From an uncultured Streptomycetaceae bacterium (GTDB taxonomy: Bacteria > Pseudomonadota > Gammaproteobacteria > Burkholderiales > SG8-41), in assembly GCA_964564295.1 (NCBI GenBank), contig CAZMBS010000003.1:1-48783 (forward strand): 48,783 nucleotides of DNA, given 5' to 3'. This document shows positions 1,850 to 40,394 of the stretch, piece by piece. Position 1 is the stretch's first letter. Each line of letters opens with the position of its first letter. The notes under the pieces are model-generated. The model searched no databases, had not been told where the DNA came from, and was given only the letters and a program-made list of their open reading frames with translations. Both the position numbers and the translations under genes were made by a program.

Positions 1850-2818
1850 TCATTCCACCCTGATGTTTGCGTCGCGGATCGCCTTGCCCCACTTGGCGAT
1901 GTCGTCGCGCATCTGCTGCGCGAACTCCGATTGCGTGTTGGCGATGACTTCGAAGCCGAGCGCGGCCATGCGATCCTTGACGTCCGGCATCTGCATGATT
2001 TTCATGATCTCGGCATGCACGCGGTCGACGACGGGCTTCGGCGTGCCTGCCGGGAACAGCACGCCCTGCTTGGTATCCGACTCGAGCCCGGGCACGCCCG
2101 ACTCCACCGTCGTCGGCACCTCGGGCAGGCCGCCCGAGCGCTTTGCCGCGGTGACCGCGATGCCGCGCAGCGTGCCGGCCTTGATGTGCGGCGACGCGGG
2201 CGGCACGGCGGTGATGCCGACCGTCACCTGGTTCGCGAGCATGGCCTGGATCACGGGTCCCGCGCCGGCGTACGGAATGTGCGCGAGATCGATTTTCTGC
2301 GTGAGCCGCAGCAGTTCACCCGACAGGTGCGGCGTCGTGCCCGCTCCCGGCGACGCGAAATTGAATTTTCCGGGCTGCGCGCGCACGAGCGCGATCAGGT
2401 CCTTCAATCCCTTGAACGGCTGCGACGGATGTGCGGTGATCACGTTGGGCGAGGCCGCCGCGCAGGTTACCGGCACGAAATCCCTGACGGGGTCGAAGCC
2501 GGGATTCCTGTAGAGACTCGGATTCACCATGAGGCTCGAACTCACGAGCAGGATGGTATGGCCGTCGGGCGCGGCGCGCGCCGCGAGCGCCATGCCGATG
2601 TTGCCGCCGGCGCCGGCGCGGTTGTCGATCACGACCTGTTGTCCGAGCGTATCCGTGAGTTTTGCCGCCATCACGCGGCCGATGATGTCGGTGGGGCCGC
2701 CGGGCGCGAACGGCACGATCATGCGGATCGGGCGTGCCGGGTACGGCTGCGCCCCGACGGCGCCCGCAGCGCCGCACAGCGCGAGCGCAACGCCCGCGAT
2801 CCTGCTGCGAGATGTCAT
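1850..2818 (-). CDS. Bug/TctC-family periplasmic substrate-binding protein
   Basis: Signal peptide MTSRSRIAGVALALCGAAGAVGAQ. Bug blocks PIRMIVPFAPGGPTD, VIDNRAGAGGNIG, PDGHTILL, PGKFNFASPGAGTTPHLSGE and HIPYAG. The start is set at the ATG at 2818 (AGGAAA Shine-Dalgarno upstream) rather than the longer ORF-track start at 2854. Confidence 0.9.
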   Translation of the reverse strand: MTSRSRIAGVALALCGAAGAVGAQPYPARPIRMIVPFAPGGPTDIIGRVMAAKLTDTLGQQVVIDNRAGAGGNIGMALAARAAPDGHTILLVSSSLMVNPSLYRNPGFDPVRDFVPVTCAAASPNVITAHPSQPFKGLKDLIALVRAQPGKFNFASPGAGTTPHLSGELLRLTQKIDLAHIPYAGAGPVIQAMLANQVTVGITAVPPASPHIKAGTLRGIAVTAAKRSGGLPEVPTTVESGVPGLESDTKQGVLFPAGTPKPVVDRVHAEIMKIMQMPDVKDRMAALGFEVIANTQSEFAQQMRDDIAKWGKAIRDANIRVE

Positions 2819-36178: not shown

Positions 36179-36221
36179 GGAGGGTCCCGTGCCTGGGATA
36201 GTGCGGAGATGGTAGCACAGC

Positions 36222-36263
36222 GCATCGCGTATTCCGGTCGACGGCAACCGGAACGCGCGATGC
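36222..36263. repeat. strong interrupted hairpin in the lipoprotein / FAAL-fusion intercistronic gap
   Basis: GCATCGCG pairs with CGCGATGC (8 bp) and TTCCGGT pairs with ACCGGAA (7 bp). They are separated by a 2x2 internal loop and enclose an 8-nt apical loop. No U-tract follows on either strand. Confidence 0.6.
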
Positions 36264-36282
36264 GTGCCGTGCGCGGGGCCGG

Positions 36283-36828
36283 TCAGCTGCCGATGTGCAC
36301 CTGATACTGCGCGCCGTTTGAAAACGCGCACGTGCCGGCACCCATGTTCGGCGCGTTCATCTGATACTCGCAGCGCGCGAACGTGCCGCGCGGGCCGTGG
36401 GCGCTCGCGAGGCCGCGCCGCTCGTCGTTGGCGACGCGCGTTGCTTCACCTACCAGCGTTTCGCCCTGGTAGATGAACGAGAAGCGTCCCTTGCCATTCA
36501 TGTAGTTCGTGACCGATCCGGTGAGCACGCCGGTCTGGTTGGCGAGATCGTTCGCCGGATAGAGCCGCACCGGCAACGTGGCCGGGAATGCCGGGCGCGT
36601 TGCGGCCGTCTCGCCCGGTGCCGGGTGCGGCGGCAGCGTGACGATTGCGCCGGCGACCGGATACGTGGCGATCGAGCCGTCGGGATTGACCGGTACGACG
36701 TAACAACCCGTAAGCAGTCCGGCGGCAAGACCCATGGCGGCGATGATTCGCGGCGATCCCTGTGCGCGTTGGAAGGGTGTTCTTTCCGGCGAAGTGCGTA
36801 CGCAATCTGGTGTTCGGGCAGCAGTCAT
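36283..36828 (-). CDS. hypothetical lipoprotein
   Basis: GGAGGA Shine-Dalgarno 6 nt before ATG 36828. Lipobox LLTGC follows the hydrophobic stretch RIIAAMGLAAG. The mature part of about 140 aa is Gly/Thr/Asn-rich (VTNYMNGKGRFSFIYQGETLVGEATRV...CEYQMNAPNMGAGTCAFSNGAQYQVHIGS). I do not recognise a family. Confidence 0.65.
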   Translation of the reverse strand: MTAARTPDCVRTSPERTPFQRAQGSPRIIAAMGLAAGLLTGCYVVPVNPDGSIATYPVAGAIVTLPPHPAPGETAATRPAFPATLPVRLYPANDLANQTGVLTGSVTNYMNGKGRFSFIYQGETLVGEATRVANDERRGLASAHGPRGTFARCEYQMNAPNMGAGTCAFSNGAQYQVHIGS

Positions 36829-36922
36829 GAAAGATCCTCCAAGTTGATCGCGGAAGCGCCGTATCGTCCGACTGGACCTCGGCACCGCGACGGGTCGGAT
36901 GATCGGGGGTCCGGAGTTGCGA

Positions 36923-36955
36923 ATGGATTACCGATGGGTCACGGATGGGTCACCG
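36923..36955 (-). promoter_or_regulatory. three direct repeats phased at exactly 11 bp; candidate winged-helix/SARP operator upstream of the lipoprotein operon
   Basis: The plus strand reads ATGGATTACCG | ATGGGTCACGG | ATGGGTCACCG (36923, 36934, 36945). An inverted copy, GGATGGGATG, lies on the other strand at 36959-36968. The repeats sit 95-125 bp upstream of ATG 36828. Confidence 0.5.
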
Positions 36956-36968
36956 CAGCATCCCATCC

Positions 36969-36998
36969 GGAAAAAGAAAGCAAAATCAATGAGTTGGG
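36969..36998 (+). repeat. AT-rich element E (A-tract + perfect IHF-type core AATCAATGAGTTG)
   Basis: The sequence is GGAAAAAGAAAGCAAAATCAATGAGTTGGG, a 22/30 match to element C. The core at 36984-36996 fits WATCAANNNNTTR exactly. It lies between the 11-bp repeats and the palindrome TTTCCGGAAA (37003-37012). Confidence 0.55.
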
Positions 36999-37013
36999 AT
37001 CGTTTCCGGAAAA

Positions 37014-40000
37014 TCAGCCCGGCTTCACAACCTGATCGTACAGCGCGCGGGTCTGCGGTCCCGGCTCGACGGAGAGGTATGCGGCAAGCGCGCGCCGGCA
37101 CCGGTCGAACGTTTCGGCGGCGTCGGCGCGCCGGCCCGCACGGTCGTATGCCGTCATCAGATGCCGGTACAGCGACTCAATCGTGGGATCCGATTCCAGC
37201 GCGCGCTCGAGGTAGTCGATCGCCTGCCCTGCGTCGCCGCATGCCAGGCAGCGCTGCGCGAGGTCTCCAGCGGTTCTCGCGAATCGATGGCGTTCGCGGT
37301 CCCGCAGCGGGAGCGTCCATGCTGCGTCGGAATCATTGGCGAGGAACGCACCGGTGTAAATGGCAAGCAGTCGCTCCCCGAGTTCTCGAAGCTGTGCGAG
37401 GTCGGGTTCCTCGGCGGCCGGTCGCATCAGGGGGCCGAGCCGGCCGACGATCTGTCCGAAAGCCCAGGTGTCCACCCAGACGTAACGTCCGTCGAGCGAG
37501 AGTTTTCCCTCCGACAGTTGCAGAACGCGGTCCTCGCCGAACAACCGGCGCAGCCGGTGCAGCGTCGTCGTGAATGAACGGTGCGCGGAGTCTCCGTCAA
37601 TGCGGGGCCACAGCGCTTCGGTGATGCGATCCTCGGGAACCTCGCGCCCGCCGTGGGCAACCAGAACCTTCAGCAGATCCAGCGGTCGCCGTTGCGCCTT
37701 GCCGGTGAACGACACTGCCGTTCCGTGCCGCAGCAGCCGGAACGAGCCGAAAGTCTGCACGCGGAATGGCCACGGCCATTCGACCAGGGCTGCGGTTGCG
37801 GCGTCCAGCGCGAGCCGTCGTTCCTGTACGATGCGGGACGCGAATTCACGCGCCACGTCGTGCTCCAGCGCGATGCTGCAGAGCCGCGCAAGCGGGCCGG
37901 GTTGCCACAGCAGGCAACTCGTGAAATGCCGCGGCTTCGCGATGTCGAGCGCGTATCGCAGCGCGCGCAATCCGGAACGCGGACGGCGTGCCCGATCGAG
38001 GCTCACGTAGGCGTAGTTCAGGAGTCCGATGAACTGGATCAGCGGGCTGTGGATGGGGCGTGCGAGGTCGTAGACCCGCTGAAAATGCGCGAAAGCCCGG
38101 CGCTCCTCGCCGCTTTCGTAGAGCACCAGCGCGGATGCCACGTGGCACAGCACTTCGTAGGTCGGACAGCCGACCTCGATCGCCATCGTGAGCGCGAGTT
38201 TCTGCTGTTGAAACGCGCGCGCGCTGTCGCGTCGCAACAGGGCTGCCCACGCCGAAAACAGATGGAAGAGGCAGAGGTCGAAACGCGCCGGGCTGCCCTG
38301 CAGCGCGGTGAACTGTTGCAGCAGCGACTCTGCGGTGTCCGGATCCCCGGACATGAGCGCGCCCCCGGCTCCATTGGCGAGCAATTGGTAGGACAGCACC
38401 TGAACGCCCTCACCGCGCTCGATGTCGAGGCCGGCCCGCACTGCCGCGAGACAGGAGTCGCGGTCATTGGTCAGCATGAAATAGCTTGCTTCGGCGAGAT
38501 AGAGCGTCGTTCGCGCGAAAGGCGTTACGTCATGTTCCGCGGCCACCCGTCGCATGCCTTCGATCACGGCCCAGGTTTTCGGGAAATGACCTTCCCACAT
38601 CATGCTCAGGGCGACGCGCCAGTCCACGAGCATGCGCAGGTTGGGGTCGTCCTGCGCGCGAGAGGCGCGGTAACCGCGTTCGACCCATCGTGCAAGGTCC
38701 GGATGGTGGGGCTGACGCACGCTCATCGACGTCAGCAGGCTGCACGAGAGCCGCGCGTCGAGTTGCGCCGACAGCAGATCCGGATACCGCGACAGCAGAT
38801 CCTCCATGACCGCGATCCACTGGTCGAGCAGCGAAAAATCGTCGACTTCATACAGGATCGCGTCCATGGCGCCCGAACAGGAAAACAGCAATCCCAGCGG
38901 ATCGGGCGTGCCCTGCTCGCGGAACAAACGATGGGCCCGTTCCTGCAGGGCGCGGCTTGCGCGGGGAGACGCCTGCATGCGGGCGACAGCGAGCCAGTAG
39001 AGCGTCCACGGGTCGCGCTCCTGGATTTCACGCGGCAGTGCCTCCACCCACTGCGCGAGCGTTTCGCCGCGCCCGGAATCCAGCATCGCGCGCGCCTGTC
39101 CGTTGATGAGGTTTTGCAGCCTTGGCCAGTCCCCCGCCGCGCGGGCGAGCAGGGCCGCCTCGGTGACCCATCCCTCGTTCGCCATCAGTTCCGCGGACTG
39201 TCGCTGCAGGGCGCTGCGCCGCTCGCGTGGCAGTGATGCGACCCGCGACACCAGGAAGTCGCGGAACAGCGGGTGGTATTCGTATACCGGTTGTGGCGTC
39301 GCGCGTTTGAGCGACACGAAGTAGTTGCTGCGATGCAGCCGCGCGAGGCGTTCGCCCGCGTTGGCGTGCCCGGACACCGCGCAGGCCATGTCCGCCGTCA
39401 TCTGTGGCAGGTACGCGGTGGACAACAGGATGTCGCGGTCTTCCGCGTCGGTTTTCTCGAGAATTTCGCCTGCGAGGTAGTCGAAGACGAGTTGTGGCGT
39501 CGTCAGATCCGGCGGCGCGCCGGGCGCGTGGCCCTCGGGCGTGTGTTCGAGCATGAGTACGAGTCCCGCCGCCCAGCCCTGAGTCCTGTCGTACAGCGCG
39601 GCAAGCGCCTTCGGCGCGAGCCGGCGGCTGCGCCGCGCGGCAATCGCGTCAGACTCGTCGCGCGAGAGCCTCAGTTCACTCCAGCCGATCGACACGAGTT
39701 GCCGGTTCGCCCGCAAGCGTGCCATCGAGACCGGCGGGTCGCCGCGGCTGATCAGGATAACGCAGCCGCCGGACGGAACCTCGGTCAGCGCGCACATCAT
39801 GACTTCATGCAGTCGCGATTGCGGCGGCAAATCGTGGTAACCATCAAACACGATCGCGAATGACGCGCCGAGATGCTTGTACATCGCCTGAAAATATCGC
39901 CGCGCGAATGCCGGAAGCGTTGCGTGCTGTTGGGGCGTCAACTGCGGCAGCCGCGCCGCGGTTCGACGGCCTGCGGCGTTCGCAGCGAGTCCGAGGTGGT

Positions 40001-40241
40001 AGAAAAATGACGCCGGATCGGCGTCGCCTTCGTCGATCTGGTACCAGAGGGAACGCGCTTTGCACTGCTCCAGGAAACTGGCCGCCAGCGTGGTTTTTCC
40101 CGAGCCCGGCGGCCCCGTGATCCATACGGCGGGACTTTTTCTGGCCTGGTCAAGCAACGCGAACAAGCGTGCGCGCGGCAGCACGCCGGCAAAGCTCGGC
40201 CGCGTAGTCTTGGCGATCGTCGGGCGGGATTTGGCCATCAC
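37014..40241 (-). CDS. large transcriptional regulator: MalT-type STAND P-loop NTPase + helical repeat (TPR-like) region + C-terminal OmpR/SARP-type winged helix + BTAD
   Basis: 1075-aa ORF. The N-terminus is MalT-like: RARLFALLDQARKSPAVWITGPPGSGKTT (Walker A), FAIVFDGYHDL (Walker B-like) and TQGWAAGLVL. The C-terminus has a winged helix (VQTFGSFRLLRHGTAVSFTGKAQRRPLDLLKVLVAHGGREVPEDRITEALWP) and a BTAD (LLAIYTGAFLANDSDAAW...LERALESDPTIESLYRHLMTAYDRAGRRADAAETFDRCRRALAAYLSVEPGPQTRALYDQV). Confidence 0.85.
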   Translation of the reverse strand: MMAKSRPTIAKTTRPSFAGVLPRARLFALLDQARKSPAVWITGPPGSGKTTLAASFLEQCKARSLWYQIDEGDADPASFFYHLGLAANAAGRRTAARLPQLTPQQHATLPAFARRYFQAMYKHLGASFAIVFDGYHDLPPQSRLHEVMMCALTEVPSGGCVILISRGDPPVSMARLRANRQLVSIGWSELRLSRDESDAIAARRSRRLAPKALAALYDRTQGWAAGLVLMLEHTPEGHAPGAPPDLTTPQLVFDYLAGEILEKTDAEDRDILLSTAYLPQMTADMACAVSGHANAGERLARLHRSNYFVSLKRATPQPVYEYHPLFRDFLVSRVASLPRERRSALQRQSAELMANEGWVTEAALLARAAGDWPRLQNLINGQARAMLDSGRGETLAQWVEALPREIQERDPWTLYWLAVARMQASPRASRALQERAHRLFREQGTPDPLGLLFSCSGAMDAILYEVDDFSLLDQWIAVMEDLLSRYPDLLSAQLDARLSCSLLTSMSVRQPHHPDLARWVERGYRASRAQDDPNLRMLVDWRVALSMMWEGHFPKTWAVIEGMRRVAAEHDVTPFARTTLYLAEASYFMLTNDRDSCLAAVRAGLDIERGEGVQVLSYQLLANGAGGALMSGDPDTAESLLQQFTALQGSPARFDLCLFHLFSAWAALLRRDSARAFQQQKLALTMAIEVGCPTYEVLCHVASALVLYESGEERRAFAHFQRVYDLARPIHSPLIQFIGLLNYAYVSLDRARRPRSGLRALRYALDIAKPRHFTSCLLWQPGPLARLCSIALEHDVAREFASRIVQERRLALDAATAALVEWPWPFRVQTFGSFRLLRHGTAVSFTGKAQRRPLDLLKVLVAHGGREVPEDRITEALWPRIDGDSAHRSFTTTLHRLRRLFGEDRVLQLSEGKLSLDGRYVWVDTWAFGQIVGRLGPLMRPAAEEPDLAQLRELGERLLAIYTGAFLANDSDAAWTLPLRDRERHRFARTAGDLAQRCLACGDAGQAIDYLERALESDPTIESLYRHLMTAYDRAGRRADAAETFDRCRRALAAYLSVEPGPQTRALYDQVVKPG

Positions 40242-40314: not shown

Positions 40315-40394
40315 CAGATATTTTCCGGTTTTCCGGTCGCGTGCTGCGCCGCCGGCGTCGGACGGCCGGCCCGACACAAGGCTCTTTTCCCGCC

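Follow-up and report, generated by a model that had tools for sequence, protein, structure and literature searches.

The regulator-lipoprotein locus

The window, meaning the whole stretch of 48,783 nucleotides that was analysed, comes from a contig of about 67% G+C in a 76%-complete assembly. Three genes follow one another on its minus strand: a regulator gene (40241-37014), a lipoprotein gene and a gene for a carrier-FAAL-acyltransferase fusion. The lipoprotein ATG occupies 36828-36826, and hence the intergenic region upstream of it extends over 36829-37013 (185 bp). Read on the minus strand, the TGA of the regulator is followed by TTTCCGGAAA, the IHF-type sequence CAACTCATTGATT, a T-rich tract and GGATGGGATG. 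Then come the four units CGGTGACCCAT / CCGTGACCCAT / CGGTAATCCAT / TCGCAACTCCG, gaccccc, GATCAT, 58 nt, GGAGGA, tctttc and the ATG. The positions of these features are collected in Table 1. The FAAL-fusion gene lies 3' of the lipoprotein gene in the nearest clade only and upstream of the array in some loci. Since its position varies in this way, it is not a core part of the module. No intrinsic terminator (GC-rich hairpin plus T-run) was found by a terminator scan of 36600-37200, so some read-through transcription from the regulator gene into the lipoprotein gene is possible. A promoter scan of the regulator-lipoprotein interval gave no consensus sigma-70 promoter, which fits an activator-dependent promoter, and an Rfam scan of 36200-37200 gave no RNA family.

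Table 1. Features of the regulator-lipoprotein locus. Positions are those of the window; distances with a minus sign are relative to the predicted transcription start.
Feature	Position	Strand	Remarks
Regulator gene	37014..40241	-	1075 aa; stop codon TGA at 37014-37016
IHF-type consensus, CAACTCATTGATT = YAANNNNTTGATW	36984..36996	-	A/T tract 36970-36985 adjoining
Candidate operator unit 1, CGGTGACCCAT	36945..36955	-	family consensus ctGTAAGCcAT; predicted at about -63 to -53
Candidate operator unit 2, CCGTGACCCAT	36934..36944	-	predicted at about -52 to -42
Candidate operator unit 3, CGGTAATCCAT	36923..36933	-	predicted at about -41 to -31, the usual -35 box zone
Candidate operator unit 4, TCGCAACTCCG	36912..36922	-	degenerate, promoter-proximal; consensus CcGCAAsCccc; predicted at about -30 to -20
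Predicted -10 hexamer, GATCAT	36899..36904	-	family consensus sAnnAT; 7 nt downstream of unit 4
Shine-Dalgarno sequence, GGAGGA	36835..36840	-	6 nt (tctttc) before the lipoprotein ATG
Lipoprotein gene (putative target)	36283..36828	-	181 aa; lipobox LLTGC

The regulator combines an N-terminal MalT-type STAND ATPase with a C-terminal SARP module, which consists of an OmpR-type winged helix and BTAD. Pfam recognized AAA_16, Trans_reg_C (weak, 3.3e-4) and BTAD (2e-21) in the protein. Residues 19-413 match the MalT structure 8bob (E 3.5e-32), and residues 832-1073 match residues 17-256 of EmbR 2fez (2.5e-10) as well as the AfsR SARP domain 8hvr (1e-6). The NCBIfam MalT model gives 1.8e-53 and 181.8 bits, far under its equivalog cut-off of 537 bits. 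The SARP module occupies residues ~825-1075 of 1075; in a typical SARP it is N-terminal and the host is an actinobacterium, neither of which is the case here. No GerE/LuxR match, and thus no C-terminal LuxR-type helix-turn-helix, was detected in the regulator by Pfam, and its relatives carry WHD_MalT and TPR_MalT domains. The family is large. It comprises at least 604 protein clusters, and members occur in 64 of the 251 genomes sampled from the order, some of which carry as many as 10. These relatives bear automatic names only ('MalT / SARP family', 'BTAD domain-containing', 'hypothetical').

The lipoprotein belongs to no Pfam or NCBIfam family. Its homologues conserve the lipobox cysteine, GEATR, two further invariant cysteines (C153 and C167) and a C-terminal HIG motif. 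The AlphaFold2 model (mean pLDDT 80; >90 for residues 83-180) consists of a disordered linker and a confident 8-stranded C-terminal beta-barrel. With this model, Foldseek returned generic small beta-barrels or lipoprotein barrels only, the best at E 1.3e-3 and none below 1e-3. Homologues of the lipoprotein without array or regulator occur in Hydrogenophaga, Rubrivivax and Dechloromonas.

An earlier note on this DNA had described three direct repeats, ATGGATTACCG (36923-36933), ATGGGTCACGG (36934-36944) and ATGGGTCACCG (36945-36955), and these are present as described, with a start-to-start distance of exactly 11. The functional strand is the minus strand, on which the repeats read CGGTGACCCAT / CCGTGACCCAT / CGGTAATCCAT from 36955 to 36923. 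The note had added an inverted fourth copy, CATCCCATCC, at 36959-36968 (reverse complement GGATGGGATG). This sequence lies at that position, but it is not the fourth unit; the true one is at 36922-36912. The units thus start at 36955, 36944, 36933 and 36922 on the minus strand, with the 11-bp period that characterizes SARP-type operators. Their cores are GTGACC, GTGACC and GTAATC in the strong units and CGCAAC in the weaker proximal unit. The 9-mer ATGGGTCAC by itself is no commoner in the window than chance predicts (7 matches against 7.6 expected).

Conservation of the array and its link to the regulator

Relatives of the lipoprotein were searched and one genome per species was then taken, which gave 78 loci, almost all of them from MAGs of Burkholderiales/Betaproteobacteria. 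Whether the repeats are kept in orthologous loci was a test that the earlier note had set, and the same array is found upstream of the homologous lipoprotein gene in ~48 of the 78 loci, in the form of three CnGTAAGCnAT units, CcGCAAsC, 7 nt and sAnnAT. Because the loci are mutually related, such counts overstate their independence. Column statistics were obtained from 47 non-redundant arrays. The consensus of the strong units is c-n-G-T-A-A-G-C-n-A-T, in which the T is found in 100% and the two A's in 85-96% per strong unit. The fourth unit follows CcGCAAsC, and the hexamer follows (C/G)-A-n-n-A-T, then G. The first T of a -10 hexamer is missing in 47/47 arrays.

No convincing -35 or -10 box had been seen in the first reading of the sequence. 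The absence of a -35 box stands, and none is expected since the promoter is apparently of the SARP type. The absence of a -10 box does not stand, because GATCAT lies at a fixed offset that is kept throughout the family: nAnnnT occurs at offset 51 in 58/58 arrays of >=30 bits, against 1.6 expected, and almost never at neighbouring offsets. In this test the matrix covered the repeats only, with the hexamer excluded. The same hexamer is shown by all 17 extra arrays that were unused in building the matrix. If it is taken as -12 to -7, the predicted transcription start is near 36892. Two other readings of these elements were tried and rejected. GTAAGC and the conserved hexamer do not form an ECF-sigma -35/-10 pair, as they are 21 or 10 nt apart and GTAAGC recurs as a phased triple. 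Nor is an ATG at the end of the -10 box a leaderless start codon, since the window lacks it and A2 of the hexamer is conserved on its own account.

A position weight matrix of the four units was built from 45 other loci with the window excluded; the register of three training loci was set with help from the -10 box. With this matrix, the site in the window scored 34.6 bits and ranked first among 6.67 million positions in its own assembly, where the runner-up reached 20.0 bits. This runner-up (G000 contig C184, ~2481-2538 minus strand, 20 bits) seems to lie within a reading frame and has no -10 box, and was therefore treated as probably a chance match. A genome-wide hunt for further repeats at 11-bp spacing, which the earlier note had suggested, returned the window site only, both by the exact pattern and by the matrix. 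The assembly contains one regulator gene and one lipoprotein gene. No array on the opposite strand was found in 1.48 million scanned positions. In a 94%-identical relative, L102, units 1-3, the -10 box and the palindrome are free of substitutions, and several substitutions are found in the 5' leader. By its rank with the independent matrix, the array stands well above what chance would give.

Units 1 and 2 of the window read GTGA instead of the near-invariant GTAA, and G at this place occurs in just 2 of 47 other arrays. These GTGA units, together with a matrix score under the family median of 43 bits, suggest that the window copy may be a weaker, lower-affinity operator. The variant showed no co-variation with the recognition helix of the regulator, which is identical to those of GTAA loci.

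The placement of the array differs somewhat among the loci. In one subclade (L046, L052, L061, L062, L066, L071, L074 and L092), its first base lies 17-39 nt ahead of the stop codon of the regulator gene, and the first one to 3.5 operator units fall inside the 3' reading frame of the regulator, so that their bases double as codons. L004 carries tandem lipoprotein paralogues (1259-1771 and 1938-2477), with an array before the first only.

The array is closely associated with the regulator family. Both were present in 37 loci, the array only in 3, the regulator only in 1 and neither in 17 loci with full flanks (Fisher p ~1e-10, with related loci counted as independent). The three array-only loci have no regulator within 6 kb, and a full-length homologue is encoded elsewhere in all 3 genomes. 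The regulator-only locus contains a weak array of 21 bits. Two array-less genomes were checked; one had no match and the other a partial MalT-like match only. The regulator gene may precede the array (47-65% identity) or follow the lipoprotein gene (34-38% identity). The same association was seen in the even sample of 251 genomes of the order, which was not anchored on the lipoprotein. There, the loose pattern GTAAsY-N5-GTAAsY-N5-GTAAsY had a background similar to that of a reversed-pattern control and was informative only in combination with the regulator search. A phased GTAAsY triple was present in 8/8 sampled genomes with a SARP domain >=41% identical to that of the window, and in at least 6 of those 8 it lay on the regulator contig, ~8 kb or less from the regulator gene. 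The array, the -10 register, the strand and the co-occurrence with the regulator are thus established by sequence comparison. The putative recognition helix, AH+SFTxTLHRLR+L, is kept almost unchanged in regulators whose overall identity is 34-65%, as would suit the invariant GTAA core of the repeats. The conservation of the repeats, their co-occurrence with the regulator and its near-invariant helix bear out the proposal of the earlier note that the phased direct repeats are the predicted sites of the adjacent winged-helix/SARP regulator.

Some genomes carry extra arrays, which precede the regulator gene (one locus), genes for small acidic proteins, a histidine kinase gene or a GDSL lipase gene. 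The variety of these genes suggests that the regulon is small, variable and sometimes autoregulated. In L052:2448, L064:5496, L074:525 and L082:3166, a second array precedes a gene for a tiny (65-95 aa) LuxR-type helix-turn-helix protein, directly ahead of the regulator or lipoprotein gene. In several relatives, the LuxR output of MalT seems to be present as a separate gene under the same operator. The extra arrays in L023:186, L040:4620, L029:1431 and L044:3573 precede small (64-79 aa), mostly acidic proteins with no recognisable domain, two of which share a motif of the type E..VFE.E.E...SE..V.S...MP...EYLRE. These proteins may be further members of the regulon.

Accessory sequences, the proposed promoter and alternative readings

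Apart from the array, the intergenic region contains an inverted copy, a palindrome and an IHF-type site. The inverted copy has no counterpart in the other arrays (47 compared) except in the 94%-identical relative. It pairs with the junction of units 1 and 2 in an 8-bp inverted repeat (CGGATGGG / CCCATCCG). It appears to be lineage-specific and of doubtful function, and is probably not part of the device. The palindrome TTTCCGGAAA lies at 37003-37012, as had been reported, and adjoins the regulator stop codon. Its inclusion in the control region was not upheld, as it is unconserved: of the other loci that share the gene order, L102 alone has it. As a word it occurs 20 times in the genome, against ~1 copy expected from base composition. 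It is probably without function in the control region. Both elements were rejected as functional parts because they are unconserved.

The IHF-type site gave a mixed result. On the plus strand, AATCAATGAGTTG fits WATCAANNNNTTR and is accompanied by an A-tract, as the earlier note had stated; its conservation is limited to the nearest subclade. It is preceded by GAAAAAGAAAGCAAA on the 5' side. The full IHF consensus was found upstream of 6 of 47 arrays, against 0.09 expected by shuffling. For 14 of 47, against 0.6 expected, the upstream stretch between -36 and -15 contained a TGATT core, ~22 or 33 nt from the array. The arrays with this core all come from the nearest subclade, where the spacer is AT-rich, and most arrays have no IHF-type or AT-rich element. 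In L102 the IHF core bears 3 substitutions. The genome encodes ihfA (156.8 bits, cut-off 111), and ihfB was not found in the 76%-complete assembly. The site is possibly a subclade-specific accessory bending site.

Two further sets of short words were noticed. The words TCCGGAAAA / TTTTCCGG stand at both ends of the regulator gene, at 36966-36974, 37005-37013 and 40321-40336. Across the genome, such words are found 6-8 times as often as expected (for example, TTTTCCGG occurs 401 times against 69 expected), so that their recurrence may be compositional and not the mark of a binding site. In L024:5622-5815, the regulator-array spacer contains the short tandem words cagttggcag, actgcaaactgc, ccttcatcc and cgtccctcctcc, which are absent from other loci.

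We propose that 36899-36955 on the minus strand is an activator-dependent promoter of the lipoprotein gene, which would be switched on by the MalT-SARP regulator encoded upstream. We give this reading a probability of about 0.8. A signal together with ATP would release the regulator and allow it to oligomerise. The SARP domains would then occupy the units side by side, one per unit, along four units on one face of the helix (about -63 to -20). The two proximal protomers, centred at about -30.5, would replace the missing contact between a -35 box and sigma region 4 ('sigma adaptation'), and RNA polymerase would then use the weak -10 box GATCAT beyond the 7-bp spacer. MalT oligomerises in dependence on ATP and ligand, and it occupies arrays of direct-repeat boxes cooperatively where promoters lack a good -35 box. 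Oligomerisation of a MalT-type ATPase in response to a signal and ATP would fit a cooperative filling of four in-phase sites. We infer that the regulator binds the units, that it activates instead of represses and that it depends on a signal.

The array may be only one part of a larger device. As in the composite control region drawn by the earlier note, IHF and the TTTCCGGAAA palindrome would both be integral to it, and the bend introduced by IHF would bring a second factor, bound at the palindrome, to the array. The perfect IHF consensus with its A-tract, the enrichment of TGATT cores upstream of the arrays in the nearest subclade, the presence of ihfA in the genome and the arms TCCGGAAA/TTTCCGGA that flank the IHF-like site speak for such an arrangement. 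However, the palindrome is limited to the window and L102 and is a frequent genomic word, the AT-rich element is missing at most arrays, and some arrays start inside the reading frame of the regulator. Furthermore, the three substitutions in the IHF core of L102 stand against none in its units 1-3. We therefore regard this arrangement as unlikely. It is very unlikely that the array is the regulator's operator but serves as a repressor site or as an autoregulatory roadblock to polymerase or read-through. The site does overlap the core promoter, the regulator and lipoprotein genes have no terminator between them, and the array overlaps the regulator 3' reading frame in 8 loci. On the other hand, polymerase on its own would find no -35 box to use, and the usual first T of the -10 box is missing in every one of the 47 arrays. 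These two features make the promoter look activator-dependent, and in cited work BTAD/SARP modules activate from this position (PMC10936776).

Two alternatives concern the tie between the repeats and the regulator itself. A different winged-helix protein, such as an OmpR/PhoB-type response regulator, might bind the repeats, and the neighbouring gene would then be linked to them by position only. Regulators of the OmpR/PhoB type bind direct repeats one helical turn apart, and one extra array stands before a histidine-kinase gene; both points count for another binder. Nevertheless, the array tracks the regulator family whether the gene lies upstream, downstream or kilobases off, the loci share no conserved response-regulator gene, the heptamer comes close to the SARP-LAL consensus, and the recognition helix of the regulator is nearly invariant. 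Binding by such a protein is highly improbable. The bare 9-mer is not enriched in the window, as would suit repeats that arose by slippage or remained from a duplication and have no regulatory role. The probability of such a chance or neutral origin is close to nil, as the sequence, phase, strand and distance to the -10 box are kept across dozens of genomes with diverged flanks, and an independent matrix places the site at the top of its own genome. The preferred reading is thus that of a promoter activated by the MalT-SARP regulator.

Meaning and comparison with known systems

SARP activators have been seen as an actinomycete speciality, and how they work was solved only in 2024. In a published survey, proteobacterial matches to the SARP profile were mostly without HTH or BTAD and may not be typical SARPs (PMC7040171). 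Our literature search on a proteobacterial SARP/MalT-SARP family or its operator, in which subscription journals were thinly covered, found no description. What appears to be new is a SARP-type operator-promoter outside Actinobacteria, together with a regulator of reverse domain order. The evidence inclines us, with some reserve, to the wider view that the window holds one operator copy of a large proteobacterial family of proteins with a MalT-type ATPase and a C-terminal SARP module. If this is true, SARP-style 'sigma adaptation' would not be peculiar to Actinobacteria and would work with the proteobacterial sigma-70 polymerase and four protomers. The likeness of the recognised heptamer CGGTAAG to the CGGCAAG of the actinobacterial SARP-LAL regulators PimR, SanG and PolR would point to an ancient DNA specificity common to both groups, in which the order of SARP module and ATPase is opposite. 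The regulator and the beta-barrel lipoprotein would form a conserved signalling pair.

The proposed operator-promoter is precisely defined and directly testable, and it would serve a proteobacterial family with reverse domain order. A defined motif enables regulon prediction, reporter design and structural work. The module also points to a conserved partner, the small beta-barrel lipoprotein.

The features of the locus recall four known systems, each in part. As in OmpR/PhoB boxes, for example the pho box, a winged helix would read direct repeats of about one turn that replace the -35 box. Unlike these regulators, however, the present one has BTAD and no receiver domain or phosphorylation switch, and its array has four units. 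The N-terminal 400 residues are homologous to those of MalT of E. coli and the LAL regulators, but the DNA motif is unrelated to the MalT box and the score of the regulator is far below the MalT equivalog cut-off.

The Streptomyces SARP-LAL regulators PimR, SanG and PolR also join a SARP module to a LAL/MalT-like ATPase half, and their monomers bind cooperatively (PMC5930380). They bind three CGGCAAG heptamers with 4-bp spacers (PMC5930380). This main operator resembles the present array, as the CGGCAAG consensus is nearly CnGTAAG (proximal CcGCAAg). They differ in that the SARP domain of PimR is N-terminal and its operator is clear of the -35 box, and in that these proteins are actinobacterial and control antibiotic pathways.

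In SARP operators, the repeats are 11 or 22 bp apart, and 8 bp separate the 3' repeat from the -10 box (PMC10936776). In the window, unit 4 ends 7 bp before the predicted -10 box GATCAT, against the classical 8, and the gap is 7-11 bp by heptamer framing. The sAnnAT hexamer and the lack of a consensus sigma-70 promoter agree with the weak -10 and -35 elements of SARP-type promoters. The afs box of AfsR in Streptomyces coelicolor spans -40 to -19 with its centre at -29.5, the -10 box of afsS is a weak CACTGT and its -35 box is poor (PMC10936776). Units 3 and 4 of the window span -41 to -20 with a predicted centre at -30.5, and units 1 and 2 span -63 to -42. In the AfsR-RNAP complex, two SARP protomers side by side take over the contact between the -35 box and sigma region 4 (PMC10936776). 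The two systems thus share 11-bp direct repeats on one helix face, with the proximal pair in the -35/spacer zone, a weak -10 box of the CAnnnT form and no usable -35 box, and both regulators consist of a SARP module, a STAND ATPase and a helical-repeat sensor. The differences lie in the domain order, which is reversed here with the SARP module C-terminal, and in the ATPase, which is of the MalT type and not of the NB-ARC/AfsR type. As read from the sequence, there are four units here against two in the afs box. The host is a proteobacterium, whose polymerase is without RbpA or CarD, and the putative target is a lipoprotein gene in place of a small regulator of antibiotic synthesis.
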